NCBI GenBank assembly: GCA_045837725.1
Contig: JBEWZL010000221.1
Location: 62,001 to 126,000 of the forward strand
Reading direction: 5' to 3'
DNA length: 64,000 nt
DNA from: Vermamoeba vermiformis
Lineage: Eukaryota
This document shows, piece by piece, positions 1 through 56,594 of this stretch; the stretch's first letter is position 1; each line of letters begins with the position of its first letter. Made by a program: the position numbers and the translations under genes. The notes under the pieces were generated by a model. That model did not search any database. It saw only the letters and a list, made by a program, of their open reading frames with translations, and was not told the DNA's origin.

Positions 1-3000
1 TTGGGAAGTTCACCATACATGTCGATGATTGCATTCAACAAATGAATCATTTGCGCTGACTTCTCTTCGTCCTCAATCTGCATGAATCGTTCACGAATCT
101 TATTTTCGTTTCGTATAATGTGTTCGTGTAAGTACGCGAGTGAGTTGAGTCGAACTTCGCTTGGCAGTTCAAGATCCATTTTCACTTTCGCTTGTGCTCG
201 CTCTTGTGGGTTCTAAGAATAAACTTATAAGTCACATTTGTTATCGAGAGAAGTTCTATTGTAAAACGATGTGTTTGGACGCGTCAAAATAAAATGAAAA
301 AAAATAAAAAATAAAAAATAAAAACACTGTTTCTCCTTACCAAAATGCTACGATAGAAGTCAGCAATCTTTGGTCTGTTTCGATTGAGGAAGTCGCTCAA
401 GTTCTCCATGTACGCTTCTTTGTTGTTCGTGGCCATGTTCGCAAGTGTTTGAAGCACTTTAGCAATCAGAACGAGTTGTCGTTGAGCCACTGGATTCGGT
501 GCTTCATGGAGAAGGCCGTAGTAGTGAGGAGCTGTCAGCGCAGGACCGATGTAACTACGAGGAGGCATGAAACATTAGACATTTCCTAATTTGGTAATAG
601 CACGCAGCCACTCACCGCAAGAACAAAAGACCGCCAATCGCTTTGAATACCGCGTCTTCATTACCAAATTTGTCCATGATAGTGTATGACATGCGAGCAA
701 AGATTTGACGGAATTCACTGAACGAAGAAGTCAGTCACGAGATTGGACCAATTAGCGTGAGGCAATTAACTTACTTTGGTACTTTGTCATCACCGTTCTT
801 GATCACTGTGAAAATCTTTTGACAAGCGAGAGCGAGTTGATAAACATTCTGATCAGTGTCAACACTCGCATCTTTGATCTTGTTCGGATCAACTTCCATT
901 TCAATCTGCAGCAACGATGCTCCTTTGTCATCGCTGTTCATTTTGTCTGCTTCTTTCATTGCCTTTGCTGCCACCGTGTTGAGTTCATTCACGACTGTTG
1001 AACATTAGTCAGTTATTACATTGACACTTTGACATTTGACATTTTGACACGTGTCAGTGGTATTAAAGTGTCACTCACCTCTTGCCAATGTGGACCACAA
1101 GTACTTTGTACCAACAAGTTTCGAGTAGTACTTGAACATCTTGCTGCCAATGCTGTTCAAACGGAAGATGGTGTTCTCGCTCGATGCTTTTCGTGCTTCT
1201 TCCGACACAAAGTACTGAAGCATTTCTGCACCTTGTTGCTTGTTTTGAGCCAAGAAGATCAAGTATTTTGCAACCTGAGTGAAACGGAGTCATTAGCGCA
1301 CGGTAGCTTAAATGAATCGATGTCGAACTTACAGCGTCTTGTTCAGTTGGTGCAGTGACTTCTGCGACAGCATCAACAAATGTTCGGTCACGACTCATCA
1401 AAACGTCTTCAAGTTGTCTACGCAAAGATGTATAATCAGTAAATGAACGATAATAAAATCAATTTGAGGTACTCACTGATAGTCATCCTTGGCGTTGATC
1501 TTGTATTTGAGTGTCAAATCAGTTTGATAAGCCACGGTCAAATAATCAGGCTCCACAACTTCGACGATCAATCCACCACGACGTTTTCGCCAGCGCATGA
1601 ACAGAATCAGCAGTACTGTGCCTGCAATCAGTGCCGATCCTCCAACTACAACTCCCGCAACCAGTCCTGCAACATCAATGGCTGCACTACAGTTTTCAGC
1701 CCATAGCTCGGGACTGCCGCATGTTGCTTGCGTTGTGCACGTGTTTGATTCTGAGCACCAGCCACAAAGATTCTTTGCGATACATTGAGAGCACGAGGTC
1801 AGTTGAGAGCAGTCTGTTTGGTGTTGTTTGTTAGCATTGTTGAGTGATGATAATGAGCCAAAGTGACTTACCAACGAAAGTGAACGGCACTGGTCCAGCA
1901 ATCGAAGTACTTTCGAACAACAATCTGAAGTTCAAACTGCTCTCGAAGATTACTTTTGGAGGTGTGCACATCAGTGACGATGAGTTGACAATCGTTGCGG
2001 ATACTTTTGGAACTCCTTCAAACTCGCAAAAGAACGAGTCTGAAACTGATCTCTTCTTTGTTGTGGTCGTTTCGTTTGACACCACTGAAGCAAGAGCAAC
2101 AAATGGATCGATGGAAGGGTTGACATCGATTGTCAGAGTGTCGTTGCCGAATAATGTTGCGTAGTTTGGAGAAACTGTCAGATCTGACAAAAAATATATT
2201 TGATTTAGCAAGTCATAACTTCAAATTAATAACAACAATAACACTCACCAATGCATTGTCGCAAAAAGAACTCTTCAGAGCCAGTGCATCGAGTTCGAGG
2301 ACCACACGACTTGGTTGTCAAGCACCAACCACAGTACGGTGAGTCTGACATGCATTGTGACTGACATCCTGATCCTGTCGAGAACGAGTTGCAGCCTAAA
2401 AGTAATTGCGTAAGATAATGCCATATGATAAGATCTCTATGCTCGCTTACTGAAGAAAGTGAAGTTGAGAGGAGTGTTTGGTGCAATGTCATCACCGTTC
2501 AATAACACACGCAACTGAACGTCACCAATCAAACGACGGCGAGAAGGCGTGACACAAGTCAAGATGTTTGCATTGACAGCATTAATGGTCGTGCTATCAG
2601 CAGGCTGATCATCGAACAAGCACGTGTACGAAAAGTCAGCACGGTTGAAGAACGGTCCGCCAGAAACAACGACTGTTTCACCTCCCTCAAAGTATCCGTA
2701 GTTTGGAGTGACGCTGTCGAGGGCTAGTTATGTGGTTAGTAATGCGTGATAGTGAAAACGAAATTTCAAGACGTACTTGGGCATTGAGTTTGAGTGATAT
2801 CACCAGCGTTACATTCGAATGCACAATACTGAGTGCACCAATTGCACCGAGTATTCGTTGGCGCCAAACACTCGTTACAGCCACTCGTGATTACGTTACA
2901 ATCTGTACGTGGAAAAGATTAGTACATCGATCATTTCGGAGGGGTCAATTTTCATCGTACCGTAAAAAGTGAAAGAGACTTGGTTTGTGTATACAAGTCC

Positions 3001-6000
3001 GTTGACTGAAATGTAGGCAGGAACGACGCCAACAGCAGCAGGAACAGTCATACAAGTGACACTGTTATCAGTGTAGTTCGCTGCAGGAACGGAGAGGTTG
3101 CCAAAGAAGCACTTGACACTGGTCAAACTGCTGACTTGCGAGAACGCGAACGAGCCACTTAACACTACCACTTCATCACCGAGTGTTGATGCACTCGATG
3201 GAGTTGCACTTATGATCGTTGGACACGTCGATGAGTTGCTCGATGTAGCTTGTGCTGCACACGTTGCACTGCCTTCGTGGAAGCACTGAAGGTTTGTGCC
3301 ACACCACGAGCATGTTGGTCTTAAATCAGAAGCACAGTCTGAACACGAAGTTGCAGAGCAGTCTTGAGACAAGCAATTAGCCAAGTGAAATTGAGAGGCA
3401 AAAAAGCACGTGCTTACCGTAGACGAGAATTGGTGCGTCAGGAGTCAATCGCTGGTAGCTTCCTCCGCCAATGTCAGCCCAAACACTCACTCTAGTCGTT
3501 CCAACGCTCAAGCTAGACTTAATAGGGCACGAAATGTACGTGCTGTTGGTGGGAGTTGCATCGGTCAAGTCTGAGAGTGCGACCGCTGTTCCAACGTTCC
3601 AAGCACACTTCAAGGTTGGCAGTGTCTGTCCATCGAACACAAACAAGCCACTAATGCGACTACATGAGAAATAGACATCAGTCTTGTGCTTTAGGCATAA
3701 GATTAACATAACTTACACAATGGTCGTGGCAAGATCGCCATAATAAACCGAGCTTGGGACCACGTTATTAATTGCTAATACAACATCATTAAAGCCTGCA
3801 TGATTACCGTTTAGTATTCATTATTACTTACCAGGACAAGTTCCAGTTGTTGAGCACGAAGCTGTTGCGTCAGCTTTGTAAATGCAAGAACGAATGCTGC
3901 CGAAGCAGAACGTGCAATCGTCACGAATAGTCACAGTGCCAAGTACATCAGTACATGTTGAGCAGTCTTGAGCGTACAATGTGCAATCTAGTGACGCAGG
4001 TTAGAACGTAAGAAAAAAGTGAATCACCAACAATTAAACATACCGTAGAAAATGAATCCAGATGTCGAGGTGTAAAGCTTGCCATTGGCATGAACGTCAA
4101 TAGTCGTTTTGATCTCTGCTTGACCACCCCGAAGTGTGTCCCATTGAGATCGAATGTCAGGCGTGCGACAACTGATCGATGTGCTGCTCACTCTTGTGGC
4201 TTGTGTCTCGAACTGACCATCGAACACACATGTGTAATTCGCATTTGGAACGACTGTAGGTGAGATCGTCAAAGTGATCAGCTTGTCTACACAAAGAGAT
4301 TAGTCATTGATGTTGAGCGATGATGCGTCGAACTTACTTCCTCGAATGGATGCACCAAGTGAAGAAAGTGATGTCACAGCTGAACAAGAGTGATTAGACA
4401 ATAGTATAATACGACACTGTGCGACTTACCAGGACAAGATCTCGTCCATGCATTGGCATCACATCGCTGAATCGATCCACAAGTCGAGTTTGTCAAACAC
4501 AAACCACATTCTGTTTCGGTGAAGCATGAAGCACAATCTGAACTTGCTGAGCATTCTGCGCTCGCATATAAATGTTAATTCAAACCACTAAATAACGAAG
4601 ATGTATATACGTACGATAGTAAGTGAATGAAGCAGAGTTTGTCGTCCACCAAGTGTTCTTCCAACGAATACGGAGATTCTTTGAGCCAGGTCCACTGCTC
4701 TTGGGACTAACACACTGCAAGCTTTGGAACTGAAGGTTGTTGACTAGAGTCACTGTTGATTCGTCCCACACGCAGCGGAAGTCAGCGGCATTGAGCAAAT
4801 CACCGGAGCTGTTTCCGAATGTACTTGTTACGTTGACTAATGTGTTGCCATCAATGGAGCCTCTAGCGGGGTCAAGTTTTTGAATTACTAATAAATAGCG
4901 TCAGACTGACAAGCCTATTAACATGACAGTAGGAGTGACTTACCAGGGCAAACGTAGAAGCGAGTATCTTGATACCATTGGTCAGGTTGAGAGCACTCTT
5001 GCGAAAGGGTGCAATTTCGCTCTTGGTTACAAAAACCGCAATAAATAGAGTCCTCAGAGCACGTCAAACAATCATAAATGGAACAACCTGAGTGAAATTT
5101 CGTTAGAAATCTACGCGGATAAAACTCGACTGTGCACAACAAAACTTACTCGTGATTTGCAATTTGTACACTGCATCGCCAGATCCACTCTTGGTTGACC
5201 AATACATCCAATTATTTGCCACGTCGAAGTAAGTAAAACCGAAAGGCTTAGCAACAATATCAGCTAAATAGACATTATTAATACGTTAGATTCTTCTTAG
5301 TATTTCGTGAATTGCATACCTGTTTGGCCAAAGTACTGCCAAGTTTGAGTCAGTCTTGTGATCGCTGATTGTGAGGTAGTTTTGTCTTGAGCGCCCATAA
5401 AAACGACGTCATTAATAGCATCTGATTGGATGACATTAGCATTAACTCGCGAATGTTCTTTTTCGTTGCTTACCATAACCAATCGCTGACACGCTGACAC
5501 CAGTCTCGAAGTACAACTGTCTGCTGAGCAAATTGGCATCGACCTATATCGTTATGAGCGCTATTGTTCAGATAGATGTTGCTTGTAACTAACTTACCTC
5601 GACAGCAGATCCAACACTGTCACCGACCAAAAAGGAATTTCGACGAGGGTTATTCACGACAACGGTGATCTATTGCTTTAATTAGTCGCTTTCCATACTA
5701 TATTGTAATTCACCGCAGTACTTACAGGATAGTTTCTTTCTGTAACGATAGCTGCATTTGATCCAACTTTGATTCCAACAGCCCCGACAGTTCCACGAGT
5801 CGGTGTATCGCGGGAACCACCGAAAAAGATCTATAATAACATATATTAACATCGTTCTGGTCATTAACAATGGATTTTAAGCTACATAAGGTAAAGAAAA
5901 TGAGTTACAATGAGCACCAAAAAAAAAAGTGTCACAAATGTCATAAGTGCTATAATTAGCCTAATTTCATCGATTCAATTGGGAACAAAGTAATGTTGAG

Positions 6001-6949
6001 CTTAATAGTTTACGTAGTTTACTTACGGTGTTCGTCGCGATGTCGATATCAATCGAAATAAATCTATTGGTGAGGAAAATTGTTGCAGGGGAAACGATTC
6101 CTTTGCCGATAGAATTTACGGCTCCAGAAACACCTGAATAGGCGACGATATCACCTGAAGAAGCGATATAAATCGTATCCGATTGTGGTGAATAAGCGCA
6201 ATCCTAAAAAAATGGGATTAAGTTTAGGCGAATTATACGGTAATATCATAGTAATTTACTTACAGCATAAGTGCCAACGTACTGATTGAAACAAAAGCCG
6301 CAGCTAAAGCTTCCCAAATCAGTTGTTCCACCGCTTGGGTTAGATAACGAGAATCGATACACATTTTGGTTCATGCAAAAGAAACCTAATGTAGATTGAT
6401 GAGTACAAACGTATTAAAAATAATTGGGAAATAATTGTTTCAATTTGCACGAGATTTCCTTTTCGATCCCAATTTTCCTACCGTAGTTTTTCGCTGGGGC
6501 TACCATAATTGCTCTTACTGCTGAAGATGCTGTGTATATTTTCTGTGCCGAAGCTACGTTATCGGGAGCATCAGTTAGCTGTTAAAATAACAATTAGTTC
6601 ACTTTTCGAACGGACCGTTTCTAGATGTGGACAAAATCTCGTGTCCACTTTCGCAAAGTTTTATCTTATATGTCATTCGTACTCGATAAATAGCGTTGTT
6701 GCCTCCCCAAAAAAAGATATTTTGTCCACTTGTCGGATCTGTGTAGTTTACGAAAGCCGTTAATCCAGCCATTCCTCCAATTGTTATAGGCGAGCCGATT
6801 TGCTACAATAACATAAGTTTAAAGGCCAAAATCATATAGCTCTTGTTTGAACGTACCACCATGCCTCGATCTAAAATTGTTTGACACGAAACGAAAGCGA
6901 GCCAATAGGCCAAGCAAAGCACCGATACTAACGCGTACTTTGCCCCCAT
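1..6949 (-). CDS. Plexin-like single-pass receptor: signal peptide, putative beta-propeller region, 7 PSI and 6 IPT/TIG repeats, TM helix, cytoplasmic RasGAP domain (multi-exon; 3' end runs off window)
   Basis: ATG at 6949 gives signal peptide MGAKYALVSVLCLAYWLAFVSCQ. Repeated CxxC...CxWC...C PSI motifs alternate with IPT-like segments ending in F[TI][YF]Y. TM segment VAGLVAGVVVGGSALIAGTVLLILFM followed by RWRKRR (~1673-1580). RasGAP motifs TIFRLNS (Arg finger), GGLLFLR|YIGPALTAP and LVLIAKVLQTLAN. Confidence 0.85.
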
Positions 6950-8255
6950 TAATAATCGCTTAATATTCCGAGCTCTGTTTTACAATGCAAAATCTAATCG
7001 TTAATTGTTTGCAACGATTTTTCCACGCTTTTACTGAACACATGTCACCAATGTGCACGTGCGATTCGTTTTAAAATTGAAGGGATTGAACCTCGATAAG
7101 ATTACTGTAAATATATTTGCCAATATGCCGCACTGATGTCGTTCTAGCTGGTCATAATTACGGCTATTAGATCTACTCGAAAGATCGTTCGAAAAGGAAT
7201 ACCATGTTAATCAGTCGCACTTGAATAGTATTCTAATGATATACGTACACTAGCGAGACGTTAAGAATCATAACGAGCCGTAACCGTTCCAGTTCGAGTG
7301 GCTCGGAAGTTTGTTGTTACGTGTGGTTGTGCACAGAATTGATTCAGATTCTTTCTTTTCGTCTCGAGAGCGATTGCACAAGCTCGACGTCATTTTAATT
7401 GGCCAGTATTATGCTGCGTGCCTCTGCTTCGTGCTGCAGCACGCTCTTTTTTGCAGCGGTAAGCGAACAAACTAGTAAAATCAACAAAATTAGTTTGGTT
7501 ATAATTTATAATAGAGTTTTCCTAAATAATAAAGGGTCGTAGAACCCTTAGAATACCCAAATTTCTGTTAGTGTGAATAATAATAATTTCTAAAAAAAAA
7601 TTAAATTACCTTCTCCACCCTTTACGTTAAAGATCAAGCGACGCGCATTATATTAATATTAATGTTAATATGCTTGGCCAATATCTTTATTTTGGAAATT
7701 TTATAATGTTAATCTGGCGGTTTCGTTCCTTTTGTATTTAATCCCTTTCCTTAAGTCCTTAAAGTGTTTTGCTATAATACTGCTTTACTTTGCAGCTGTT
7801 TATTGGTTTGTATTGCCTTCAAAGCAAAATATAATGACAATAATTTGTCTTACTGCTGCATAACGTTTGTATTGTTCGCAGCATTGTTATTATTCGTGTT
7901 ATTAGCATTACTATTGGTATTTTGATTTAATTCTGTGACGTGGTTCACATCCCAGTCCATCAACGCGATTGCCAGGCAATAACCGTGGCCGAAGTTGTGT
8001 TTAGAGTCGTTAATCATCGTCTTCATGCTATCTTTAGTGACTAAGATACTATTTTGATCGATCCAATTGTCGGCGACTGAATATTTTTCTTTGTAATAGG
8101 GCATTGACTCCTGATGCGGCCCATCCACTTCTACAATCAACAAGTTTTCGCCTTTTTTCAGTCGGTCTTGCAATTTTTTAAATCTTGGTGCTTTCTTGAC
8201 TAATTCTACGAATACTGGTAAGTAGATCTGCTTTCTAGACGAGATGTAGTCCAGA

Positions 8256-10824
8256 CACTGTGGTTAAAACACAATGTTTTTTAAAAAAAACAATGTTCGT
8301 AATAAAAAACCAGTGTTTATTTTAGTACATGATGTGTTATTCAAATCCGTACAAAGTAAAAAAATTTTGCCGTAGTTCAGCACCGCCATATTGATTTTCA
8401 GAAAATGAGCGCAGACGAGGAGACGACATGGAAACGCACGGAAGGGACAAAGGCATGTCAATTGCAATAACGGCAATGCGTTAGGATTTGTGCCCCAAGT
8501 TTTTGTATGAATAATTATCGATTAGTATTTTTTTCGTAAAAAAATAACAACACCGCATAGTCAATACGAAGATAAATGAAAAGGGAAAGATCGTCTAAGT
8601 AAATTCCAAACAACCTTCATAGCTCAAGATAAATGAGAAGCAACTATAAAGAAAATAATAACGAAAAATAAAACGTCGTGAATATTTTTAATCTGCGATT
8701 TCTCGCTCAGGTTGAGTGAAGCCAACCAGGCTCCTGGAACATACATGCCAAAAATATCGTACCTTCCAAAAGCAAAAGCGTTAAGCAACAGCAGCCGGCG
8801 AGTAAAACTACTCTCATCTGAGAAGACCCACGAGTGTGCGCTATCCCTATCAAAAACCCCATCGCATTCCACGCCCACCACGCACCCCCAGCAAACGGCC
8901 ACCCACCAGTCCAACCAACCCCAGCGGGGATCGGTGGCCCGCGGGACCAGGCCGGTATGGGGGTAAAGCCAGATAATTAGAATACGCACCTAGTTTTGCT
9001 CCGTACACAGACATGATCGGCAGACGCGCGTCATACGACCGCATTGGGAGTTCCTGTGAGCGAAATTCACTTTTTTACTTTGGCTAATGACGGCCATTTG
9101 ACTCGACGACCGTGAGAAGAATGGACGATGAGCCAATGCTGAAAACGACGATGTCGATGTGTTTTATTGATAACACTTTAAGCGAGTCGCCACAGTTTCG
9201 CCCAAGCCTGGTACAGAGTGACCAAGTCATGGTTCTCCTCAACCACCCAGCCCTCCTCACCGTACACGTGCGACAACGCTAAAGGCCACTCAATCGTCAT
9301 CTCCCAGCACTGGAAATCGCAATGGTGTTGCCAACACTGTGCAACCTGCTGCCTCGAACACTAATCAACGGTTCACATCAAAATCCAAGTCTCCTCGTGG
9401 TCCAAACAACAACACGCCTCCCGATTCACCACGAACGAATGAGAAGCCATCGACGGAGCCAAAAAGAAAGCAACAGGGTAAAGCCAAGTCACTTCCATCT
9501 GAAGAGCCAACCACAGTAAGTGAAAAGATAATGACGAATAAAATATCAGGAATGCGTCGAGAAATTGATTTTTGCGCGACAGCGCTAGAAATCGTTTGAT
9601 ATTACAAACACCAAGAGTTCGAGGTGTAGCGATAAATATTTACACCTCCTTCAACTGGCTCCACTTAATTTAATTGGTCCTACACCTTGCGGTGCGTGGT
9701 ATTATCTTTAACGCATTTATGACTTAGGGCCTGTCTTTCTGGCTGCGCTTTCAAGGTAAAACTTCGTCAAAATATTTAATCATTTAAGAGCATTCTTATG
9801 CTGACAACAGACACATTATGATTTTTCGAGGAGGAGATGAGTTTTTTCCGTTGCTGCACCATACGTTGATCGAAACACCCGCTTTTATGCTGTAAGTTAG
9901 CCTGCTTAATGATATGAAATAGTAATCTCTGCTAGACGGCGATCGATCTATCATTCGCTTCAGAAACCGTTTTGACGCCTGAAAGGCTTCAGCGACGCTT
10001 TCACGTATGTATTACGCTGCTATTCAAACTAAGACTCACCAAGAATCAGATGTTCCTGTGCATGCTCTCCGCTTACGCGTTCAAAAACGCTCCGAAGAAA
10101 TTTATACCTCTATTGAAGAGCACTTTCGCAATTGATTACCTGTGAGTTACCATCAATTTCACTGCCACTTTCTAACGATAACAGGATTTGACTCGCGATG
10201 CCTTAATTGCTGCCATATCAGAACTGCCCTTTGCGACAATCCGAGAGAGTTGCTACAAGTTCGTTCACAATGCAGCATCGATGTTCGATCTTCAAGTGAT
10301 GCCTTCATTCACCTTGATGAACGCACGCTCGGGAGCGATTGAAGAAGTTCAACCGTCGCAGAACGATTATGAAAAAACATTGATGCATATTGGTGTCAAT
10401 CTGCTTGCTCCTGAAGACGCGCACAACGCTGCATATCCGATGACAGAAGCGTTATTTCAAGTAATGCACAATTATTAGAACTGATTAACTAATTAGTTCG
10501 TAGAGAGTTGTCCTGTTAAAAGAGAGTGCTGTTTCTTCGACAAAACAGTTCCGTGAGCTCTTCAACGATGTTTCCGCTCTTTTTAACTAACGACCAGCTG
10601 CTGGCATGTTTCTAACTCTTCTTTAATTATAATTTTTAAATATCATTGAGAACTATTAATAATTATTAATATAAGAAAAATAATAACAAACGCTTGTAAT
10701 AATATCTATTGTATTTTTAAACACTGTTTATTAAAACGTTGTTTCCAATAAACACAAGTTTTTTAAACACAGTTTTCCTGGCAGGATTTTTCATTCGAAA
10801 AACAGCGTGTTTTACACCACAGTG
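8256..10824. mobile_element. CACTA/EnSpm (CMC)-like TIR DNA transposon, apparently non-autonomous, 2569 bp
   Basis: Left end CACTGTGGTTAAAACACAATGTTTTT; right end reverse-complemented CACTGTGGTGTAAAACACGCTGTTTTT. GA direct repeat at 8254-8255 and 10825-10826. Several subterminal AAAC-N3-5-GTTT motifs at both ends. It interrupts a coding sequence exactly. Confidence 0.9.
9121..10590 (+). pseudogene. Intron-containing internal (cargo or accessory) gene of the CACTG element, probably decayed; function unknown
   Basis: Protein-like segments (QPAASNTNQ...PSEEPTT; HIMIFRGGDEFFPLLHHTLIETPAFM; DLTRDALIAAISELPF...EALFQ) are separated by GT...AG introns. Frames are inconsistent at the 5' end and near 10135. 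No DDE transposase motif recognised. Confidence 0.5.
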
Positions 10825-11537
10825 GATGCGCTCCGCCTTTCTCTTTCAAAGCGAACTTGCATTTGTGGCGGTGGTGCATTCCAACAGGGTAACGAACAGG
10901 CTCTGCGTTCTTCATTCCTGCTTCTCGCCACTTCCAATAAGCGTCGTTTGGCTCGCCATCCGCGTTCAAATGTTTTTCGGCGGGCCATTCCCAAACAATA
11001 ACTCGATGGCGGAACGAAAATGGAATAGAGACCTTTGGCACTTCTTCGTAGACCTTGCTAAATTGCCAAATATTCTCCATCAGCCTTCCTTCTTCGTCTT
11101 TCAAGACATACGGACCGAGATCGCCCCACGCACTGGATTTCGTCAAACATATTATTCTGGTGAACCCTGGGTACTCAGGATACTCCATTTTTTTCTCTTT
11201 ATTATACCAACATCTTCCGACTCTTATTTGGCCTCTTGTGGTCATCTTGTTCGTTTTGTAAACTCGACTGGAGACCCAAGAATTCTGTGATTTTATGTGG
11301 AACTGTCGGCAACTTTTCCCGACAAGTTTTTTAAAATAAAATCATGTTAATGAAGAGTATTTTTAGCTGAATTAGCTAGTTCAGTCGGCTTTCCAGAGAT
11401 TGAAGTTGAACAGGCAAACAAAGACCTGCATCCGCTCGCACGTAACTTCGGCGAATAAAACGAAATAATTCAAAATTAATAATATTACTATAATATATTA
11501 CTATAATATAAGCCATTCTGGATTCTTTAATTTACAT

Positions 11538-12892
11538 CTAATTAACAGCATTTGTTATTTTAAATTTAAATTTGTTCTCAGTCCATTCTTTTCCTCCAGG
11601 CAGCATCGCGTGCTCACAAAACGTTAAATTATCTTCCTCGTCTATTAACAATATCGTTTGGGCTCGAGTACCAAACCTATTTGAAGATCTCGTAAGTTGA
11701 ACTGACTTGTTACATGGGAAAAAACGAGTATGCAGGTAAATTTTTAATTCCAAATATGGAAATATTAGCTCATTTTGCTTACACTGAATGCAACATCGGG
11801 AATGGCTCGATGAAAATCGGCTGCATATGTTTTTCAATTTCAAAACCGACACCTAAACAACGACCATAAGAATCGAGTCGTAATACCAACGTTATATAAG
11901 ACCCAACAACGTACCAGTATCAGGCACCATATCATCGCGAGGGACGTTTCTTCTGTCATTCAAAATCGTGTACAGATCTTTAATCAATTTGTCTTCATCA
12001 CCGTTATAGCTCTTAAGATCGATTTCGGATAACAGTTGTTTGCCCAATACGACTTTTTGCCACGGTGTCTCGAGAATACGGTTTGATAATCCATAAAACT
12101 GAAGAAAAAAATTAAATTAGATCAACCTTGGATCGTCAACAACCAAATTGTCTTTGCAAATATGTTGTGCTCGATATGCGAACATTATCCTTATTAATAA
12201 GTTATTATAATTATAATTTGCTTACTTTGCCCTTCTCTAAAAGTACTGGCTTATCACCTTCGTCTTTGTTTCCAAAATACCAAAGTTCGTCAACTGTGCC
12301 TAAAATTACGTTGAATCCGTCGTAATCATGCTTTTCTGCGTGTAATTTATGGATAAATTCGCGAGCTGAAACTGTGCTCCTATAATGAACATCAAATCAG
12401 CTTTTTGATTCACGAAATTTCAAATTGAACAGATCCACCTCTTTCATGAAGAGATCAATCGGTATAATATTGATTCCCATTTTATATAAGCATTTTTTGA
12501 GTATTATTCTACTTACTTGAGATAATCTAATAAAATTTGGCCACGACTCTTAGCATCTGTTCGTAGTTGGTCGAATGCAACGCGATAATTTGTGACCATA
12601 GCTATTCTGCCCGTCTTAGTTACGCCAAACCAAGTGCCTTGACGTGCAAGATCTCGACCTACATTAAAATTTATAAATTAACTTATTATTTTCAAATAAT
12701 TTCTCTAGAGCTAGTTATGCCTAGAATGTATCGGTACTATTTCATAAAATTATTACCTCCTAAGATCAAAAATCCTGAGTCTTCCCAAAATTTAGCAGCT
12801 TCTGTTGGACGATCTAGAAGCTCGTCTCTATTTGCAAGCACTATCAGCTTGTATCCTTGCGTCGCTCCTACACTTAAAAATATTACACACAT
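11538..12892 (-). CDS. TANGO2: TANGO2/NRDE-family protein (multi-exon)
   Basis: N-terminus MCVIF...LIVLANRDELLDRPTEAAKFW, then YDGFNVILG, LSNRILETPWQK and C-terminal FGTRAQTILLID. Confidence 0.9.
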
Positions 12893-12996
12893 ATTCTGTC
12901 GTACTTGTGCTTCTAATATCGTTTGAAAGAAAAATAACTGGTCTTTGATACAACAGAGAAAAGGTAGCCAAAAATTCCTGAGGTAAATTTCGTTAT

Positions 12997-14955
12997 TTAT
13001 ATACAAGATAAAGTGAAGAATGTTCTAGGGATGGGATTAGAGCTGCTCATAGCACCAATCGTGATTGAATTAGTTTGCAAAGCTCGTTTGTTATGTCTTG
13101 TCGAGGATCCCATTTTGACCATTATTTGAGCTGTTTCACCAATAGAAAGGACTCGTGTTTGCGTCGGAGATACAGCTTAATAAATATTAGCATTAATGTT
13201 CGAAATACCAAACTATTTGGTACTTACTAGCATGTTCTGAACCAGATGCGACGTACACATTAAACGCGGTTGGTTGGAGCTCGATATTTGTTAAATTCAG
13301 ATAGAATGTGTTAGACTAGAACACCATTAGTGCTTATTCCTAGAAACTAAGCATATAAGGATGGCTACATACCACTGAGCAGTTAGGACGTTGTGGATTT
13401 ACTTCATTGAGGGTGAATCCAGCATCGATCGTAGAAACAACCTAAGGAACGGTTAGTATTGCCTTTAATAATTACACATCGCCTGGTATTCACTGACAAC
13501 TTACATTTGACAAGATAGAACCAGCTTGATAAATAACGTTCGCGGCGTCGTTGTCTTGTTTCAGATGCGCCAAAAAGAACGAATTTGTCAAGCAATGCGT
13601 CAATTCCATTTGAACATCACGGTCAATCCATCCCGTCAGCGATCGACAGAGGAAATCAGGCAGTTCGATGGATTCGTCCCTGTTTGCCAAAAGTCTTGTT
13701 AGACAACAAGGTAAAGCTTTAAAATTTCGAAAATAACCGCATTACATGAATCCACAATGCCATCCACCTTGAATAACATTCAACAACTTCGGAGGCGAGT
13801 TGAGTAAGCTGTAGATCCGTACGTTTTCGCTAGGCGATGAAAGGAAGTCATCAGTTCCGCCAATAATAAGAGCAGGACCTAACATGATGTCAGATGTGTG
13901 TACCAATCGGCACCTACTGTCTACTTACAATTGACACCACCCATTAACTTAGCATCAAGCGCCATACCAGCGATCGGGGCAACAGCTTTTACACGCAGAT
14001 CCGGTTGTGGCCACGCAACTGAATAAAGTGACCTACGCGTAATGGTATTATATACGTGGTCCTAGTCACGGTCATTATAGTCTCTAAAGAGCTTACATGA
14101 ATCCGCCTTCAGAATGGCCAGTAACACCCATGTTAGCAACGTCTACCTAAAAATCGAAAATACGCAAATTAATGAATGCTGATTCGAATCTGTACTAATT
14201 AGGCATTGCATAGTGCGTAATAAATACCTTGCCATTTAGCCACGATGTTGTATCGGCATTAGCTGCTTCAAGGTAATCCAAGCACAATCGCATGTCCGTT
14301 GCGTAACGGTCCAAATAATATTGTATTCCAGGAGTATAATCGCTATTTGGGCCAATAACCTATAAATCGTTCATACATTAACCACTATTAAATGGAAAAT
14401 ACTCGCATTGAGATCGTACGATGAAGCCCCAAGACGATAGATGTTCAAAGTAGGAAGTGTACTCAAAGAGAGGTTGTAACAAGCCGTGGGCGAATGAAAC
14501 CTGCGCCAATAGCGAGCTTAACATGAATGCACGAGGAAATATATCAAAAGTAAGATAAATACCACAGGGAAAGGACCGCCAGAGATCATCGGTGCATCTT
14601 GGCCATCACTTGTTGCAGGATAATACAAATAAATATCAAAATTCCTAAAATAGACAATTAAGTGATAGGCATCGACAACCAAAGTATTTGCTATTATACG
14701 GAACTCCGCGGCAGATTTGAAAAATAAAAAAATATCTTCTTTCAAATAATTAAACACGAACCTATCTTTCATATCAATTGATAATCCACCCTTGTAGCCC
14801 GACTTATATGGTCCTGATAGCAAGGTTAATCGTGCAATACAGCTCGATCAGCTACCTTTGTGTCCATATCCAGCGCAGTCTATCGCAACCGCGCATTGCC
14901 ACGTGAGGACGATGGCCACAACGAGCAAGACAATATTTCTCGGTTCTGTGGTCAT
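12997..14955 (-). CDS. Secreted alpha/beta-hydrolase (chlorophyllase/PET-hydrolase-like fold) with C-terminal extension
   Basis: Signal-like N-terminus MTTEPRNIVLLVVAIVLTW, then IYLYYPAT...GPFPVV, HGLLQP...EHLSSWGFIV, nucleophile elbow MGVTGHSEGG and ALIIGGTDDFL. Confidence 0.75.
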
Positions 14956-36288: not shown

Positions 36289-36524
36289 TGTAACGATCTC
36301 GCTAAGATCGTTAATATCAATAATATCAATAATGAAATTAAATAACGCTATCCAAACTAACGGAGATCAATTCCCGTCGTGTTTTGTGGAATTTTCGTTA
36401 TAAGGAAAATTCCACGCGTAAATATAACATTGTACCAAGTAAATAAACGAAGTTCTCCCACGTCCAGTACAACACCACTCTTTACATATTGTTACTGTGT
36501 TTATTTGTTAGTAGCATCGTTACA
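36289..36524 (+). mobile_element. LTR copy 1 (236 bp) preceded by a polypurine tract; remnant 3' end of an LTR retrotransposon
   Basis: TGTAACGAT...ATCGTTACA termini. Purine run AAGGAAGGAAGAG at 36276-36288 immediately upstream. Highly similar to the reverse complement of 57820-58056. No TSD (flanks AAGAG / GTTTA). Confidence 0.75.
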
Positions 36525-38103
36525 GTTTAAAGCTGAGTAAATAAGGCATAGTCTGCAATATATCGCTTCTTTTGTGCACCAATCCTGAGCCATCGCCGCG
36601 GTACCTAATTGACTGCAGCGAAGTCAAAGTCGTAATATGAACGCCAGTAAAATCTTCAGGCGATTTATAGATACTCAACAGTGTCAAATTCTTGAATGCT
36701 GTCAATAATAATAATCTATTGTCATCGTCCACGTGAGATATATCCAAAATTTGAATATTCGTTAATGGCAAAACATTGATCCAAAAAGATTCGTCATGAA
36801 ATTTCGGATCTAGTCTTAAACTCGTTAAATTCGTCAATCCTGATAAGAACTCGCATTCATAAGTATCATATATGGACAAATCATCGCTATTAAAGAGATC
36901 TATCGTAAGTTCTTGCAGTTTCGTCAGTTTAGCGATAGATCCCAAATGAATGGCTTCGTTATGCTGAGTGACATATAACGATGTCAAGTTTGAAAATAAA
37001 TGAAGGTGTTGCGAATTAATCGTTTGGCTTTGATAATTGACGCAGAGTTCTTCCAAATCTGTCAGTTGAGTCAATTGAGCCAAATCCAAGTCGGTGTCTA
37101 TTGACGTCAATGCCTTCAAATTATGTGGCAGATAGTCATATAATCCATTGATTATCTCAGTAGCACCGGCAGTGCATCCGTCAAAGACAAATCTGGTGAG
37201 TTGACGCAGATGTAGCAAAAAATTGAACTGAATCGGTTCTTCTAATTGATCCATTGACTCAAATTCCAAGACTTGTAATTTTGTTAATTTTTCTATGTCT
37301 TCTGCGTTCGTTGCGTGCCATCGTTTGGATCCAATCTTAAGGTAAGTCAGATTCGTGTTCGTCGCTAAAGACGGAAGAACGTCGCAATAGAAATATGCTG
37401 ACTCTAATGAAGTTGCATATGTCATGTCTATAATGCTAGAATTGCCGTTGTCGTCGACGCTGTAACCAAGATCTTTCAGATTCGTCAATCTGCTGCACAT
37501 CTCCTTGCCGTGCTCTATGTCGGTTCGGATTGCCATACGAAGACATGTTAATTTTTCAGGATATGGAACAAGCGCAAATGGCCAAGTCTTTGATGAATCA
37601 TAGAAGTGCAGAGTATTCAGGTTGGTCATCTGCTTTAAAAAGGGCGCTAGTTCTTCTTCGGGGGCGGTTACGGTCCATTCAGTTAATTTCGGGAAATTAA
37701 TCCATAAATCTCTCGGTAAATAGTCGGCTAAAAATCCACAGACCTCTAGATTCGTCAGAGTCGAAAGTTGCATCCATTGATCTCGGTTAATGTCGTCAAT
37801 ATCAACGTTCATACTATCAGTACGGATTTCGACGAGGTTAGTGAGCCTTGGTAAGTATTCTAATAGGTCCAGGACTGGGCTGTCATCTTTGGATTTCAAA
37901 AGTGTGAGCTTGATCGGCCAGGAATATTTTGATAATCGCTCTGTTATTGCTGGTATATTTTCTTTTCGTGTGAAATAGAGTGTAAAATTATCATATCTAA
38001 TAATATTAAACCATTTTGTGCTGGCAAGTCGCATCTGTCGTTTTGTCTTGTCATCCATGAACTGCGCAATCACAGGCCAGACATCTTGCGGTATTGCGTC
38101 CAT
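36520..38103 (-). CDS. F-box-like/leucine-rich-repeat protein, intronless (~527 aa)
   Basis: MDAIPQDVWPVIAQFMDDKTKRQMRLASTKW (F-box-like) followed by many L..LT.L..L repeats. Its stop codon lies inside the LTR terminus. Confidence 0.85.
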   Translation of the reverse strand: MDAIPQDVWPVIAQFMDDKTKRQMRLASTKWFNIIRYDNFTLYFTRKENIPAITERLSKYSWPIKLTLLKSKDDSPVLDLLEYLPRLTNLVEIRTDSMNVDIDDINRDQWMQLSTLTNLEVCGFLADYLPRDLWINFPKLTEWTVTAPEEELAPFLKQMTNLNTLHFYDSSKTWPFALVPYPEKLTCLRMAIRTDIEHGKEMCSRLTNLKDLGYSVDDNGNSSIIDMTYATSLESAYFYCDVLPSLATNTNLTYLKIGSKRWHATNAEDIEKLTKLQVLEFESMDQLEEPIQFNFLLHLRQLTRFVFDGCTAGATEIINGLYDYLPHNLKALTSIDTDLDLAQLTQLTDLEELCVNYQSQTINSQHLHLFSNLTSLYVTQHNEAIHLGSIAKLTKLQELTIDLFNSDDLSIYDTYECEFLSGLTNLTSLRLDPKFHDESFWINVLPLTNIQILDISHVDDDNRLLLLTAFKNLTLLSIYKSPEDFTGVHITTLTSLQSIRYRGDGSGLVHKRSDILQTMPYLLSFKL

Positions 38104-38548
38104 AATAAATAAAAGCAAGATAAAATCAGACGTAATTTTGCTTTTTACTGCTTCGTGTGCTGAGCGAATGAAAAATATCTTGCCAGCCCACAAAAAAGTT
38201 TAATTAATAACCGATGAAATCTCGTTGTGGCTAATTGTGATACATTATAAGTCGTATTATCGTTAGCAGAACAAACTCAACCGCATGCTTGATCTTGATC
38301 CGTAACTCATTCAAAATTTGATTTGAGTTAGAAACGGTTTACTTGAACAAAACAACCTTTATTTAAGCATTATCCATGTACCAGAAACAGCGCGTATATA
38401 ATTATTCGAAAAGATAAATCAAGCATTTACAGACTAATCAAAAAATTTTGAGCGGCGAGTTTTCAATCCAAAAGTATCTGATTCAATACGAACGAATGGA
38501 CTAATAATAAGCGCAATAAACTAGCATTTATATCAAACATCGATATTC

Positions 38549-50629: not shown

Positions 50630-52941
50630 ATGAGAGTAGTTATATTAGCAATTATTCTCGCGTTAGCTATGGTCGAGGCCAGGGTTACGAACATTAGAAG
50701 CGAGATCCCGCCTAAATTCGAGTTACTCGATCGTGCACCGGCAGATCAAGTTCTTGAATTTAGACTAGCGTTAAAACAGAATAATATGGATATTTTAGAA
50801 GCAAGTACCACCGATGAAGCCTTAATCTCCTTTAGCCTTAGTCAGATCCATTTCTGAATTTTATTTTTAGGCTACTTTGCTCGATGTCTCTGATCCCGAC
50901 TCAAAGAACTATGGTAAATATATGTATTGATTATTATAACCGAAGTATTGGTTGCGAAAAAGCAACTTACTCTTCCATATTTTCTGCACTGATGTCCTTA
51001 TTTGTTTATTAGGCAAATGGTGGACAACTGAACAAATTCTCGATTTAATTGCACCATCAATCGACGAGATCAAGCCAGTTGTTGCATGGCTCAAGTCTTA
51101 CGGAGTGGACGAGATCGACGTCTCTGGTCGTGATTTCATCAAGGCAAAGGCTCCTATTGGAATAATCGAACAATTATTCCAAACCGAAATGCATAATTTC
51201 CAATCAAAAGAAACAGGTTTGTTTTCGGCAAACTGGATGCGCACCATGAAAATTATTTTAATAAATTCTTTCCAAATTAGGCAAAGTCGTGCCACGTGCG
51301 TTCGGAGAAGTTCACGTGCCTGATCATCTTCACGTAATTCAGTTTGTAATGGGTATCACGGAACTCGTTCCAAACTCGTATGTGAAGAGCAATGGTGTTT
51401 CGGATCTGAAGCGCCATGTTGAGCAAGATCCGCTGGGGTACATTTATCCCGGTATCATTCGAAAGATGTACCAAATCCCTACAGCCTTCAAAGTCAATCC
51501 AAAAAGCTCATTTGCTGTCGTTGAATATCAAAACGATACGTCCTACAATCAAGCGGATCTGACTATTTTCAACCAACAAATGAACGAGAACGCACGAGTG
51601 CAGAAGATCGTTGGACCTTTTTACCCTGATGATCCTGATGTTGAATCCACTCTTGACGTCCAGGTAATATTAACTTCTTCAACACTTCAACAGATTTGAT
51701 CTGTTGGATCGGATCAGAAATTAACGTCGTCGAAGAATTTTTCGTCGGTAACTATCATAGTAATGATTTTTTTAAATAGTACGGTTCTGCGATCGCTTTG
51801 AACACTTCGTTCTGGTTCTGGACAGTTGACCAATGGCTGTACGAGTTCGCTACTGATTTGTTCAATGCCAAGTCGCAGCCACTCGTCGTGTCAATGTCTT
51901 GGGGCTGGCCTGAAATTATGCAATGCGGTATGACTGCTTGCGTTAATTCATCGATGGGATCGTCATTGCAATACGTTCATAGAGTGAACAACGAGTACAT
52001 TAAGATCGGTTTAAAGGGCATCACTTTGCTCGCTGCTTCAGGTGATTTTGGTGCCGGTGGCGATGGTGATATTGGCTGCGCTAATATTTTGACAACAATT
52101 TTCCCTGGTGCTTCTCCTTGGGTCACTTCTGTTGGTGGAACTATGTTAATACCACCTTCGCAAGCCGTTCATGAACGACGCCAATCCAAACAGCAACAAC
52201 CGCCTATCTGCAGTCAGTAAGTATCACGTGATATTTATTTTATCAATTTTATTTCTTACGTTCAAACTTTAGAAAACAATGTGCAACTACAACGGTCGAA
52301 GGTGTTTCTTCTTTTCCTGGTAAGATTTTTATCCTTAATATTTTGTTCTTCTAGTATTAAGTATTACTATGTTTACAGCTGCACGTATTACATCCGGCGG
52401 AGGATTTTCAAATGTGAGTGATTTGCCCGGCTGGCAAAAAGACTATGTCAACGAATACTTGAAGATCGCGACGAATCTTCCGTACGGCCAATTCAAGCCT
52501 ACTAAACGAGGCTTCCCTGACGTAGCTGCAAATGCGCACAATTACTTGATCAATATCGCCGGCCAAGGGTTTATGTCTGTTGACGGGTACGTTTTGCGAT
52601 GAAGTTTATCAGATCTCAATTTTTATTAATTTTATTATGAAACCAACAGAACTTCTGCGGCGACTCCCGTGTTCGGAGCTATCATCTCGCTGCTCAATAG
52701 CTACTTGCTCAACAACGGCAAGAGCTCGATTGGCTTTGCCAACCCCTTGTTGTACAAGATGTACGCTGCTGACAAGACGACCTTCACTGACATCACCACT
52801 GGCAATAATTATTGCGCTGAAGCGTGTTGTGGCAATACTGGATATGTTGCCACGAAAGGCTGGGATGCAGTGACTGGTCTCGGTACTCCTATCTTCCCCA
52901 AAATGCAGGAGTACCTCCAAAAGAACGTTGTAAACAAATAA
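50630..52941 (+). CDS. Sedolisin/tripeptidyl-peptidase I (S53) protease, copy A, catalytically intact
   Basis: Signal peptide, pro-domain (LLDVSDPDSKNYGKW), ESTLDVQ, ASGDFG, FPDVAA, DG|TSAATP, GWDAVTGLGTP. Confidence 0.92.
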
Positions 52942-53040
52942 TAGAAAAATATATATTTGGTAATAAAATAAAAGTAGGTCAGGAAATTCTGGTTGTTTTG
53001 TTGTCTCGAGCAGATCGCCACAAACCTACGCGCAAATTCA

Positions 53041-55356
53041 ATGGCACAATTAAACAGCGCTATATTTATTGTTTTAGTGGCGCTGCTATGCGTCGAGGCG
53101 AAGCTAATGTTACAGAGGAATCACGTTCCTGATAACTTTATCAAACTTTCGTTGGCCCAACCAGATCAGCCTCACGAATTTAGAATTGCATTAAAGCAAC
53201 GCAATCTAAATATTTTGGAGGTAATTCATTATATTCAAATTATACTAATATATTTCATAGTCGATCCAAGATTTTTCGATTTTACGTGACCTAAAAAATT
53301 ATAAAACCTATCAATAACGCTATAATAATTATAGGAAAAATTATTGGAGTTATCTGATCCTGATTCGCCCAAGTACGGTATGAACGGAAATATCTAAAGA
53401 GGATTCAGATCGAGAAGTTTGATACCTGACCTATTATTCAGGCAAATGGCTAACCAATGACCAAATTCTCGATTTGATCGCCCCTACGGAAGAAGAGATT
53501 AAACCTGTTGTTTCATGGCTCAAAGAACACGGTGCAGATCGGATCGACGACGTTTCAGGACGAGACTATATCAAAGTTTCTGCTTCTATTGGAGTCATTG
53601 AAAAATTGTTCCAAACGAGAATGCATCATTTCAAGTCTGAAGAAACTGGTAAGCGAGAAAAAACGCCGTTGTCGATCGTGATCTTGCTGACCACCCACAT
53701 CAATTAGGCAAGATTATAACACGTGCTTTCGGTGAAATTCACGTTCCAGACCACCTTCACGTAATTGATATGGTACTTGGCCTCACTGAACTCGTTCCTA
53801 AGTCTGAGATCGAGCCCGTGAAACACAAGCGAGACGTTACTCAAGATCCAATGGGCTACATTTATCCTGGCATTTTAAGACTCAATTACTATATTCCTAG
53901 TGCCTATCAGGTCCATCCTAAGAGCTCTATTAGCATTGTCAACTTCCAGGATCTGCCGGGTTTCAGTCAATCTGACCTCCCAGTTTTCAACTACAATTTC
54001 AACGAGAGCACGCATGTGGATAAGATTGTTGGTCGATTTAGCGGTAATAGTCCGGACTTCCAATCGAATTTACAAGCTCAAGTAAGTATCAAATAATTAC
54101 ATATTGCCAGCATGACGTGCGAAGTAGCGGATCCAAAATTTTTCACGATAATTTTTACGTGGCATTTAGTTTCTTTATTGACACAATGTTCAATATAGTA
54201 CGGCAGTGCTCTTGCATTAAACACTACTTTCTGGTTCTGGACGGTCGATAAGTGGCTGTACGAGTTCGCCACGGATCTGTTCAATTCTGATCCGTACCCT
54301 CTCGTCGTTGTCATGGGCTGGGGCTGGCCTGAAGACTTACAATGTCAAATTGTCGGTTGCGGAGGTGTCTCTGGCTCGTACGCTTATGTCGAACGACTCA
54401 ACGCAGAATTCATGAAACTGGGTGTCAAGGGCATTACGCTCTTAGCCTCTGCAGGCGACAAAGGAGCACCGGGAGATAAAGACAGACACTGCAAAAAAGG
54501 AATTATGTCGACCATGTTCCCTGCCTCGTCTCCTTGGGTCACATCTGTTGGTTCGACGATGCTCGGTGTTCAAGAAAACAGACTCTTTAAATCGAAGCGT
54601 CAAGCTCCAATTCCTTATGAATGCACACAGTACGTCTAATAATTAATGTATTATATTATTGTTACTAATGCTTGCAAATAGAGTCCAATGCGCAAGTTCT
54701 AGCTACGAAATTGCCTGCGCATATCCTAGTAAGTCGCAAAATGAATACAATATTAATGGTATTGATATTAATATTATTCTTGGAAATTAGCTGCATTTAT
54801 GACTACTGGTGGAGGATTTTCGCAAATTAGTCCCAGACCTGCGTATCAACACGATGCCGTGAAACAATACTTCAACAATACTTTCACGCTATTGCCTCCC
54901 GCCAATTTGTTCAATGCCTCTAATAGAGCATATCCTGATATCAGTGCCACCGGCCATAATTACTTGGTCCAAGTTGGAATGAACGGATTCGTGCAGGTTG
55001 ATAGGTACGTGGTCTGAAAGTCCCCAATCCACGTCAATTTTTTTTCTAACTAGATCTGCCAATTTAGCTCGGCTGCTTCAGCAACAGTAGTTGGCAGTGT
55101 TTTATCATTATGGAACAGCTTCTTATTTAACAACAATAAGAACTCTCTCGGATTCGTGAATCCGCTCCTTTACAAAATTTTCAAAGAGAATCCGAACGCC
55201 TACACGGACATTACTATTGGCACTAATTACTGCACGAAGAGTTGTTGCGGTACCATTGGTTATAATGCAGTTCCTGGTTACGATGTGATTTCAGGTCTAG
55301 GCACGCCTTTGTTCTCGCCATCCATCCCTACACTCAAGAAAATTCTCAAGATCTGA
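53041..55356 (+). CDS. Sedolisin (S53) paralog, copy B: intact frame but catalytic triad substituted (pseudoprotease)
   Basis: Same exon structure as copy A. FQSNLQAQ replaces xESTLDVQ and DSSAASAT replaces DGTSAATP. Confidence 0.85.
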
Positions 55357-55502
55357 AAGCAGCACTAGTCACTGTATATACCCACGTAAGCTATTATAGC
55401 AAATACTGCAATTTTGGTTTGATATAAAATCATAACTTGAAGATCCAGATTCTCTGTGCAAATTTTTTTTCGTTTCATTTTTTACAAATAGAATTTTATT
55501 TC

Positions 55503-56293: not shown

Positions 56294-56594
56294 AACATTC
56301 TTGATGAAATGAGCAACCGTTCATTCCTGATCTTAAATATTCACCGAGCACGTGCCTTGAACTAAGCTCGTGATTGATGTCACGTGCCACTACAGCAACG
56401 CTTCTGATTATCACAAATTAATTAAATTATTATTATTTGACGCAGCGTCAAAAACAGTCTTTGGTTCAAAAAGTAAAAAAAAAAGGCCAAGTGGCCTGTT
56501 CTTTGGATCTTTTAAGTGAAAACGCTTGAACGAACACGTAAAACAATTTATAAAAGGAATTGCTACTTACATAATATTTGGAGCCGAGGAAACA

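Follow-up and report, generated by a model that had tools for sequence, protein, structure and literature searches.

Within a 64,000-nucleotide stretch of the Vermamoeba vermiformis genome (assembly GCA_045837725.1, contig JBEWZL010000221.1, positions 62,001 to 126,000; the whole stretch is referred to below as the window), two open frames on the minus strand, 10763..11341 and 7850..8263, are halves of one intronless gene of 274 codons. The coding parts run from 11245 to 10826, beginning with the ATG, and from 8253 to 7850. Between codons 140 and 141 lies an insert, which is a DNA transposon with terminal inverted repeats (TIRs) of the cut-and-paste type, flanked by a 2-bp target-site duplication (TSD). 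As shown below, the encoded protein falls in a family without annotation, common among giant viruses, that is related to Pfam DUF6939 below threshold.

On the minus strand the two junctions read ...GGC GGA GCG CA(TC)/CACTGTGG ... CCACAGTG/(TC)TG GAC TAC, and the detailed reading of the same junctions is ...GCG CA(TC)/CACTGTGGTGTAAAACAC... and ...GTGTTTTAACCACAGTG/(TC)TG GAC TAC. Excision of 8256-10824 together with one copy of the dinucleotide (GA on the plus strand) yields GGAHLDY and a stop-free joined reading of 140 + 1 + 133 = 274 codons. The N-terminal half, used as the sole query, matched 141 of 143 candidate proteins at E <= 1e-3, nearly all of them 230-270 amino acids in length. Its top homologue, a JGI protein of 251 amino acids (P0001, E 9e-77), is identical to the joined reading in 232 of 256 aligned columns (91%) and reads ...KEKSGAHLDYISSRKQ... 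unbroken over the join. Because the joined reading is colinear with the viral homologues, the gene is without an intron. An earlier note made from the sequence alone (the original prediction) had proposed a single split, intronless gene of 274 amino acids with exactly this join, and the sequence, P0001, a contig from a close relative (below) and the codon count all agree with it. The same note had placed an inner boundary at 8173, which was incorrect, as the C-terminal half extends to the insert at 8255. The Asn-rich tail that it described as appended does lie beyond the family C-terminus in the alignment, and the counterpart of this tail in the P0001 model has a predicted local distance difference test score (pLDDT) of about 53. 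The coordinates of all features are collected in Table 1.

Table 1. Features of the interrupted gene and of its insert (positions in the window)
Feature	Position	Strand	Evidence and remarks
N-terminal half of the gene	10826..11245	-	codons 1-140, MTTRGQIRVGR...KEKGGAH; open frame and homologue search
C-terminal half of the gene	7850..8253	-	last two bases of codon 141 (Leu), codons 142-274 (DYISSRKQ...NVMQQ), stop; colinear with P0001 and viral homologues
Asn-rich low-complexity tail, 35 codons	7853..7957	-	past the family C-terminus, absent from viral homologues (alignment)
Candidate catalytic helix motif E57-N-I-W-Q-F-S-K64 (E38/K45 in P0001)	11054..11077	-	alignment; helix H37-42 of the model
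Acidic residues E182-V-D184, end of last beta-strand (E163/D165 in P0001)	8123..8131	-	alignment and models
Inserted TIR DNA transposon, 2,569 bp	8256..10824		TIRs, TSD; probably non-autonomous, by the tests made
Left TIR (CACTGTGGT TAAAACAC..TGTTTTT)	8256..8281	+	about 26 nt; inverted termini begin CACTGTGG
Right TIR	10798..10824	-	inverted-repeat pairs I1 and I20, and arm comparison
TSD copy 1 (GA on +, TC on -)	10825..10826		sequence; empty-site joint skips 2571 = 2569 + 2
TSD copy 2 (GA on +)	8254..8255		sequence
3' exons of the element gene	9936-10004, 10050-10142, 10185-10478 including stop	+	GT..AG introns of 45 and 42 nt; upstream exons undefined

The left and right TIRs are perfect over 9 nt and then identical at 24 of 26 shared positions, with one 1-nt gap. 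The element has the termini 5'-CA ... TG-3' (CACTGTGG...CCACAGTG) and perfect GA/GA flanks. Such 5'-CA..TG-3' termini and TSDs of 2-5 bp are common to the CACTA/Mirage/Chapaev/Transib (CMCT) clade, and relatives of Harbinger/ISL2EU are also capable of 2-bp TSDs (PMC12730594). The DDE transposase of the CMCT clade, with its C(2)C and H(3-4)H motifs, was found neither by a Pfam scan of the six internal open reading frames (ORFs) of the insert, which returned no family, nor among the 7 scanned relatives of the last exon of the gene that the element carries. Because no transposase is recognisable in the element, its assignment to a superfamily is not possible; it is probably non-autonomous, or else it encodes something unrecognised. 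Further copies of the element or of its TIR are absent from the 64-kb window, and the element had no match by blastn in a phage collection. Rfam and tRNA scans of 7000-12000 returned no RNA gene, and a tandem-repeat scan of the same interval returned a single short repeat of 19 nt, inside the left subterminal region.

Reads and contigs of four sequencing runs were placed on the locus at 85% likeness. One run (X5) carries another organism label and represents a close relative, one (X21) consists of raw RNA reads under the species label of the run that best contains this DNA, and one (X2) is apparently DNA from the same sample as that best run. Contigs of X2 terminate exactly at 8255, 8256 and 10824, and other flanks continue from 8256 and 10824. 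Because these contigs enter other flanks at 8256 and 10824, the element is present at other loci, with its ends where the TIRs place them. The depth of X2 is 808-956 over the element versus 340-520 over the gene flanks. About 500 nt inside the element, 8568-9063, have neither contig nor depth in X2, and copies of the element in this run have internal skips from 8314 to 8483, from 8381 to 8487 and from 9666 to 9735; the copies therefore differ in structure. The insertion represents a TIR element with a 2-bp TSD that was recently active in this genome. The original prediction had given the extent of the 2.6-kb gap correctly (8256-10824), but had not recognised the insert as a transposon.

The transposon carries a spliced gene of its own on the plus strand. 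A spliced contig of X5 (record 11) has joints from 10004 to 10050 and from 10136 to 10185, with 6 letters between, and one frame is open over all three exons to the stop at 10476-10478. Among 1.84 billion representatives, no more than 11 weak relatives of the last exon reach E <= 1e-3, and scans of 7 of these 11 returned no family over the matched part and no transposase domain. Fourteen X21 RNA reads finish in poly(A) after 10690 on the plus strand (element gene region 9936-10690).

An empty-site joint, from 8253 to 10825 with 2571 nt skipped, occurs in three runs: X5, X21 and X2. In X5 it is carried by a 202-nt contig that has 4 differences and extends 46 letters to one side and 156 to the other, and in X21 by one RNA read with a side of 61; the X2 contig is weighed below. 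The two letters at the joint fit either side. The X21 RNA reads that cover the two halves number 54, and all of them have a likeness of 85-95% (bands 0/0/30/24); they therefore come from a diverged copy, about 90% alike, and not from the window allele. In the N-terminal half of this copy there are 22 listed codon differences (the listed set covers this half, with 44 further differences not displayed), of which 20 are at the third position and 21 are synonymous. Five of the six differences in X2 are synonymous as well. The X21 reads and the almost wholly synonymous differences show that the copy that is about 90% alike is transcribed and that its protein has been maintained by purifying selection in the lineage. 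Because both halves are intact and an uninterrupted form is present in a near-identical relative, the disruption is recent, and the insertion is unfixed among close relatives. The same two findings uphold the earlier proposal that inactivation was recent, made on the ground that neither half has decayed. The proposal that the gene is inactivated holds for the window allele, which is broken, but the gene is not simply lost, given the transcribed and selected copy. Three X21 reads at 10825 run through the N-terminal half to the join, continue for 15 nt that resemble the C-terminal half and then diverge; the 8 nt that should come next are found, reverse-complemented, in the divergent sequence. 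Chimerism of the reads, a variant copy or RNA left unspliced could account for this.

The protein belongs to a family with a wide distribution in giant viruses. A scan of IMG/VR with a 53-sequence alignment of the family confirmed 55 of 104 candidate stretches and gave 54 loci, many of them on contigs of giant-virus metagenome-assembled genomes (MAGs) of up to 1.47 Mb, and tblastn on GVMAG and IMG/VR contigs reached E-values down to 6e-81 over residues 3-223. The P0001 model had 10 matches in BFVD at E <= 1e-3 (1e-28 to 8e-5), all of them in Nucleocytoviricota and all annotated as "uncharacterized": Edafosvirus, Bodo saltans virus, Solivirus, Megavirus courdo7, Marseillevirus (two), a Megaviridae sample, two Pithovirus MAGs and Orpheovirus. 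Proteins of Nucleocytoviricota thus resemble it colinearly over the full length by tblastn and in BFVD, the clade has support in the trees described below, and the giant-virus relatives that the original prediction had expected do exist. Among 185,579 prokaryotic species genomes there were only 8 loci, all in MAGs, and a search for the P0001 DNA in metagenomes returned only a 44% relative (L064). A short form of the protein, of 190-220 amino acids, occurs on phage-like IMG/VR contigs and in four of the 8 MAGs. Two segments set the long form apart from it: the motif helix is followed by an additional beta-hairpin, and the acidic strand by an additional helical segment. Short and long forms share the invariant residues P, E, N, K, W, P, Y, Y, L, D, G and H.

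The Pfam family DUF6939 (PF22075) is matched by 42 of the 53 members at E <= 10, with 13-27 bits against a cut-off of 27; the DUF6939 match that had been expected was therefore obtained for most members, but below threshold in all but one. No family was returned by NCBIfam, PHROGs or PADLOC for P0001, for the related entry P0015 or for the short forms. A full-text literature search for DUF6939 found no paper, and among the titles listed for NADAR in giant viruses none was on this family; a canonical NADAR annotation is reported for clandestinovirus (PMC8383183).

The relation of this family to NADAR proteins was examined through predicted structures. AlphaFold models were obtained for P0001 (pLDDT 92.7) and for a short form (pLDDT 97.6), and when both were compared with 48,161 PDB representatives, the only three NADAR entries among these representatives took ranks 1-3, each well above rank 4. 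In Foldseek searches with both models, the two best PDB rows were the NADAR entries 2b3w and 8bat. The original prediction had put forward a comparison of a predicted structure with YbiA and DarG1 as a check; NADAR structures are the top three fold matches of two independent models. Five weak BFVD rows are annotated as NADAR, and in an Atlas cluster of bacterial DUF6939 proteins, looked up through P0015, Pfam NADAR-DarT1 is annotated on 17% of the members. One short-form MAG protein reached E 0.19 against PF22397, over the motif region, with 11.6 bits versus a cut-off of 27.

The family also has a candidate catalytic motif. In 32 long and short members, E, N and K of the motif are invariant, and W, Q and F nearly so. 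The invariant residues E57 and K64 (32 of 32) are predicted to be helical, and they have the spacing of the catalytic pair E88/K95 of the Escherichia coli C7 NADAR protein (PMC11543638), of which they are the putative counterparts; the corresponding motif of YbiA is EHYFQAQK. NADAR proteins have their third catalytic residue, which can be E, D or H, in the last strand (PMC11125620). In the present family D184 is invariant, and the acidic residue that precedes it is E in the long forms and D in most short forms; by position, they are putative counterparts of the NADAR residue. The last strand is E158-161 in the model of the long form and E144-148 in that of the short form. We regard homology to NADAR as likely. 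The label "NADAR-like" is used here for the predicted fold rank and the motifs, because no sequence or profile method links the two families.

Longer proteins that contain the family domain provide a view of its probable function. Of 16 such proteins (P0257-P0272), six are fusions to a PIF1 helicase and two are fusions to an endonuclease-IV-type domain (AP_endonuc_2), one of these also with RNase H, and in all eight the family domain lies behind its partner. In one protein the domain stands ahead of an AlkB-like 2OG-Fe(II) oxygenase, and in another it is at the end of a family-B DNA polymerase (PolB). Single fusions involve a dNMP kinase, DUF4326 and a canonical NADAR domain, and in three proteins no partner domain could be named; one of these three has nothing but a weak DUF6939 match, which lies on the family domain itself. 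A motif of the ENxWQxxK type is retained in 15 of the 16. The family domain of P0272, the NADAR fusion, lacks its motif-helix region. DNA replication and repair are the common thread to which these fusions point. On the IMG/VR contig L049, an ORF with a PARP catalytic domain (5681-6532, plus strand; 35.3 bits versus a cut-off of 26.7) lies directly downstream of a short form; the two ORFs of this phage-like contig may form a pair of ADP-ribosyltransferase and hydrolase. The PARP ORF on this contig is followed by an ORF for a polynucleotide kinase-phosphatase. A role in ADP-ribose conflict, as the original prediction had it, is a prediction from sequence, and what the fusions indicate more directly is a part in DNA replication and repair.

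The origin of the gene was approached with two trees. A FastTree of 176 rows joins the P0001 cluster and the window gene in a clade (support 100) on a stem of 0.46, and this clade lies within a 15-row group (support 97) that has 3 viral and 8 unlabelled rows. In a careful IQ-TREE analysis of 54 labelled rows, whose bootstrap was not fully settled, none of the 200 bootstrap trees had the 38 viral long-form rows together as one clade, and the gene was nested in all 200. A first approximately unbiased (AU) test, made on a quick tree, had returned p 0.86 with the constrained tree the better one; it reflected a poor free search and was replaced by a test on the careful tree, given below. Judged by their frames, the genes that neighbour the split gene are cellular-looking, each broken into several short ORFs on the same strand, for example at 2896-4900 and 11538-13024 (minus strand). 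There is no block of viral genes, and the acquisition was therefore of a single gene. Viral origin is favoured by the distribution of the family, by the absence of introns and by the maximum-likelihood tree; it is not proven, because the AU test leaves the alternative standing. The viral acquisition proposed by the original prediction is thus consistent with the viral relatives and with the 0 of 200 trees, but nesting of the gene within viral diversity, though favoured, is not significant.

The best explanation of the data as a whole is that of a NADAR-like, virus-derived gene, one allele of which was recently knocked out by a transposon, and we give it a probability of roughly 60%. A number of results weigh against it. 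At the locus, no contig crosses the filled junction among the rows shown for any run, and the X2 empty-site contig, of depth 333, has a shorter side of 28 letters, under the 31-letter rule; in our reading, this is how a 31-mer unitig with a branch at either end would look. Searched alone, the two halves in the window match 0 Pfam families, and the gathering cut-off of DUF6939 is passed by only 1 of the 53 members (P0065, 27.3 bits; P0001 has 13.5 bits). The short-form neighbourhoods (13 loci, 74 ORFs) hold no recurrent family, with one PARP, one ADP_ribosyl_GH and one NUDIX domain. As to NADAR itself, 0 of the 53 members match PF08719 (NADAR) or PF22397 (NADAR-DarT1) at E <= 10; a YbiA control scored as expected. 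The family alignments A1 and A3, aligned by hhalign with a 30-sequence YbiA-type alignment, had probabilities of 0.3% and 0.2%, the alignments being shallow (effective number of sequences about 2.6-3.5) and the sensitivity low. No NADAR protein was found by hmmsearch with the A1 and A3 profiles against PDB sequences. Its sole PDB matches, de novo designed TIM barrels that were hit through a repeated helix-strand motif, were judged spurious. The Foldseek E-values of the NADAR entries are 0.1-1, none of them <= 1e-3, with TM-scores of 0.28-0.48, and the putative residue equivalence is read from motif and position. The NADAR claim of the original prediction thus stands on fold ranks and on the invariant E and K of its motif, but finds no counterpart in the profiles. 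A rival reading is that the resemblance is one of a common alpha/beta arrangement, the family being some other enzyme of DNA repair or nucleotide metabolism, such as a DNA glycosylase-like or nucleotide-binding protein, and its E...K pair coincidental. We consider this rather unlikely, since NADAR has only three representatives among the 48,161 and these rank 1-3 for two separately predicted models, since the BFVD annotations, the overlap of DUF6939 and NADAR-DarT1 in one Atlas cluster and the contact of a short form with PF22397 at the motif region all lean the same way, and since the spacing and helix position of the motif are those of a published catalytic pair.

The direction of transfer and the fate of the interrupted allele have to be weighed in the same manner. 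In the FastTree, 118 of the 176 rows are without a taxon label, and forcing the 38 viral long-form rows to be monophyletic on the careful tree is 17.5 log-likelihood units worse and is unrejected (p 0.285), which leaves room for a eukaryotic clade outside all of them. This would suit an old eukaryotic gene, or one that giant viruses took from eukaryotes, as would the long stem of the eukaryotic clade (0.46-0.52 substitutions per site), a best viral identity of just 55-58% or so, and the long residence implied by purifying selection and expression. However, no named eukaryotic protein occurs among the 120 listed of the 141 matches or in the clusters looked up for 10 proteins, the family extends over two giant-virus orders and 54 viral contigs, the viral long forms never formed a single clade in the bootstrap trees, and the gene is intronless among neighbours with frames in many short same-strand ORFs. 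A non-viral source is therefore improbable in our estimation. Far less probable still is that the insert acts as an intron, in the manner of an introner-type transposon, and that the interrupted allele continues to yield a working protein. Among the GT/AG pairs near the element ends (8 GT by 1 AG), one is in frame and stop-free, with an exon end at 10769 and resumption at 8257, and this cryptic splice would add 20 codons for a protein of 294 amino acids. The boundaries that restore GGAHLDY, however, are not GT..AG, and the nearest cryptic sites leave 8 or 11 surplus bases. No placed read has the splice from 10769 to 8257; the X21 reads all come from the copy that is less than 95% alike, and RNA of the interrupted allele itself is absent from them. 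In the model, moreover, the 20 added residues would sit between a core strand and a core helix. A spliceosomal intron was accordingly rejected, its boundaries being non-canonical and its single cryptic in-frame splice lacking read support.

Given a NADAR-like gene of viral descent, a mechanism can be proposed. The protein would have the YbiA/NADAR fold with two lineage-specific inserts, in which the invariant Glu57...Lys64 pair, the acidic Glu182/Asp184 strand and His230 would act together to cleave, by hydrolysis, an N-glycosidic bond of a nucleic acid. Considering the fusions and the N-glycosidase-type fold, the most economical mechanism would be that an N-linked adduct is hydrolysed off DNA. 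The most likely reaction would be removal of ADP-ribose from a DNA base, which might serve DNA repair or might shield DNA from ADP-ribosylating enzymes. The eukaryote would have taken the gene from a giant virus and kept using it, with one allele then knocked out recently by the transposon. Reversal of guanine ADP-ribosylation in DNA by NADAR enzymes is described as shown only recently, and the roles of these enzymes outside bacterial toxin-antitoxin systems as open (PMC11125620). A bolder and distinctly tentative proposal, which we would hold to be doubtful at present, is that the giant-virus long form is an unrecognised, DNA-acting branch of NADAR, one copy of which a protist has domesticated and maintains under purifying selection. 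Such a branch would act in repair or counter-defence by stripping ADP-ribose or another bulky N-linked adduct from bases, coupled in some viruses to a PIF1 helicase, endonuclease IV, AlkB or the replicative polymerase. If this were true, ADP-ribosylation of DNA bases would be a live weapon or lesion in the biology of eukaryotes and their giant viruses.

Taken alone, neither the horizontal acquisition of a gene nor the insertion of a transposon is out of the ordinary, and it is the unannotated, NADAR-like giant-virus family that is the interesting part. It is a tractable lead, with a NADAR-like predicted structure, invisible to sequence profiles, widespread in giant viruses and repeatedly fused to enzymes of replication and repair. 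Through it one can ask whether ADP-ribosylation of DNA bases, or some lesion akin to it, is of importance to eukaryotic hosts and their viruses. The copy in the eukaryote is a natural experiment, being apparently virus-derived, expressed and under purifying selection, with a transposon knock-out allele beside an intact one, so that carriers of the intact and the interrupted allele could be compared, for example in virus susceptibility or DNA-damage tolerance. Relative to the original prediction, the TIR transposon with its spliced gene, the uninterrupted form, the selected and expressed copy and the repair fusions are new.

Elsewhere in the window, 50870-61640 contains a cluster of repeats, direct as well as inverted, that have diverged (70-83% alike, 47-296 nt) and lie over several paralogous multi-exon genes on both strands, and ORFs in this interval have, by eye and in our reading, a serine-peptidase motif of the GTSASSP type. 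Two adjacent inverted-repeat pairs, at 36289-36524 and 57820-58056, lie 21 kb apart and are 96% and 89% complementary (130 and 106 nt); they could be a mobile element or a recent duplication. One of these arms adjoins the start of an uninterrupted frame of 559 codons on the minus strand (36520-38199), which encodes a leucine-rich-repeat-like protein, is unusually long among genes with short exons and is a candidate for a second intronless gene.

Comparison with known systems places both the insert and the gene. The element resembles CMCT transposons in its 5'-CA...TG-3' termini, 2-bp TSD and short subterminal repeats, and differs from them in that no transposase was found in it and a spliced gene of unknown family is carried. 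With respect to DUF6939, all four short-form MAG proteins match the profile, two of them covering positions 12-150 of 167, whereas the giant-virus form is longer by 60-80 residues and falls below the gathering cut-off in all but one member. The closest counterparts are the giant-virus proteins A0A3G4ZV69 (Edafosvirus), A0A2H4UVW7 (Bodo saltans virus), A0A3G5AFG8 (Solivirus), H2ECJ1 (Megavirus courdo7) and D2XAB9 (Marseillevirus), which are single-domain, intronless members of the same family (Foldseek E 1e-28 to 1e-6, TM-scores up to 0.9, 22-48% identity). Unlike these, the window gene is in a eukaryotic chromosome between intron-bearing genes, has an Asn-rich tail and is interrupted by a transposon. 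The best structural matches are in the NADAR superfamily: YbiA (2B3W), the DarT1-associated NADAR protein of Geobacter lovleyi (8BAT) and a Phytophthora NADAR protein with ADP-ribose (8BAU). The family differs from these in having no detectable sequence or profile similarity to them, in the two extra segments of its long form and, in our reading, in a GHGY motif in place of the Gly-rich C-terminal segment of YbiA; what it appears to share with them is a Glu-x6-Lys pair, on a helix that follows an N-terminal strand, and a last strand that bears an acidic residue (PMC11543638, PMC11125620). A functional parallel is offered by the orphan NADAR-type, antitoxin-like enzymes that phages direct against DarTG1 (PMC11825919). 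Those enzymes are canonical NADAR relatives of T4-like phages with tested function, whereas the present family is divergent, is associated with eukaryotic hosts and is known from sequence; by analogy, its members may likewise be stand-alone viral hydrolases that reverse ADP-ribosylation of DNA.

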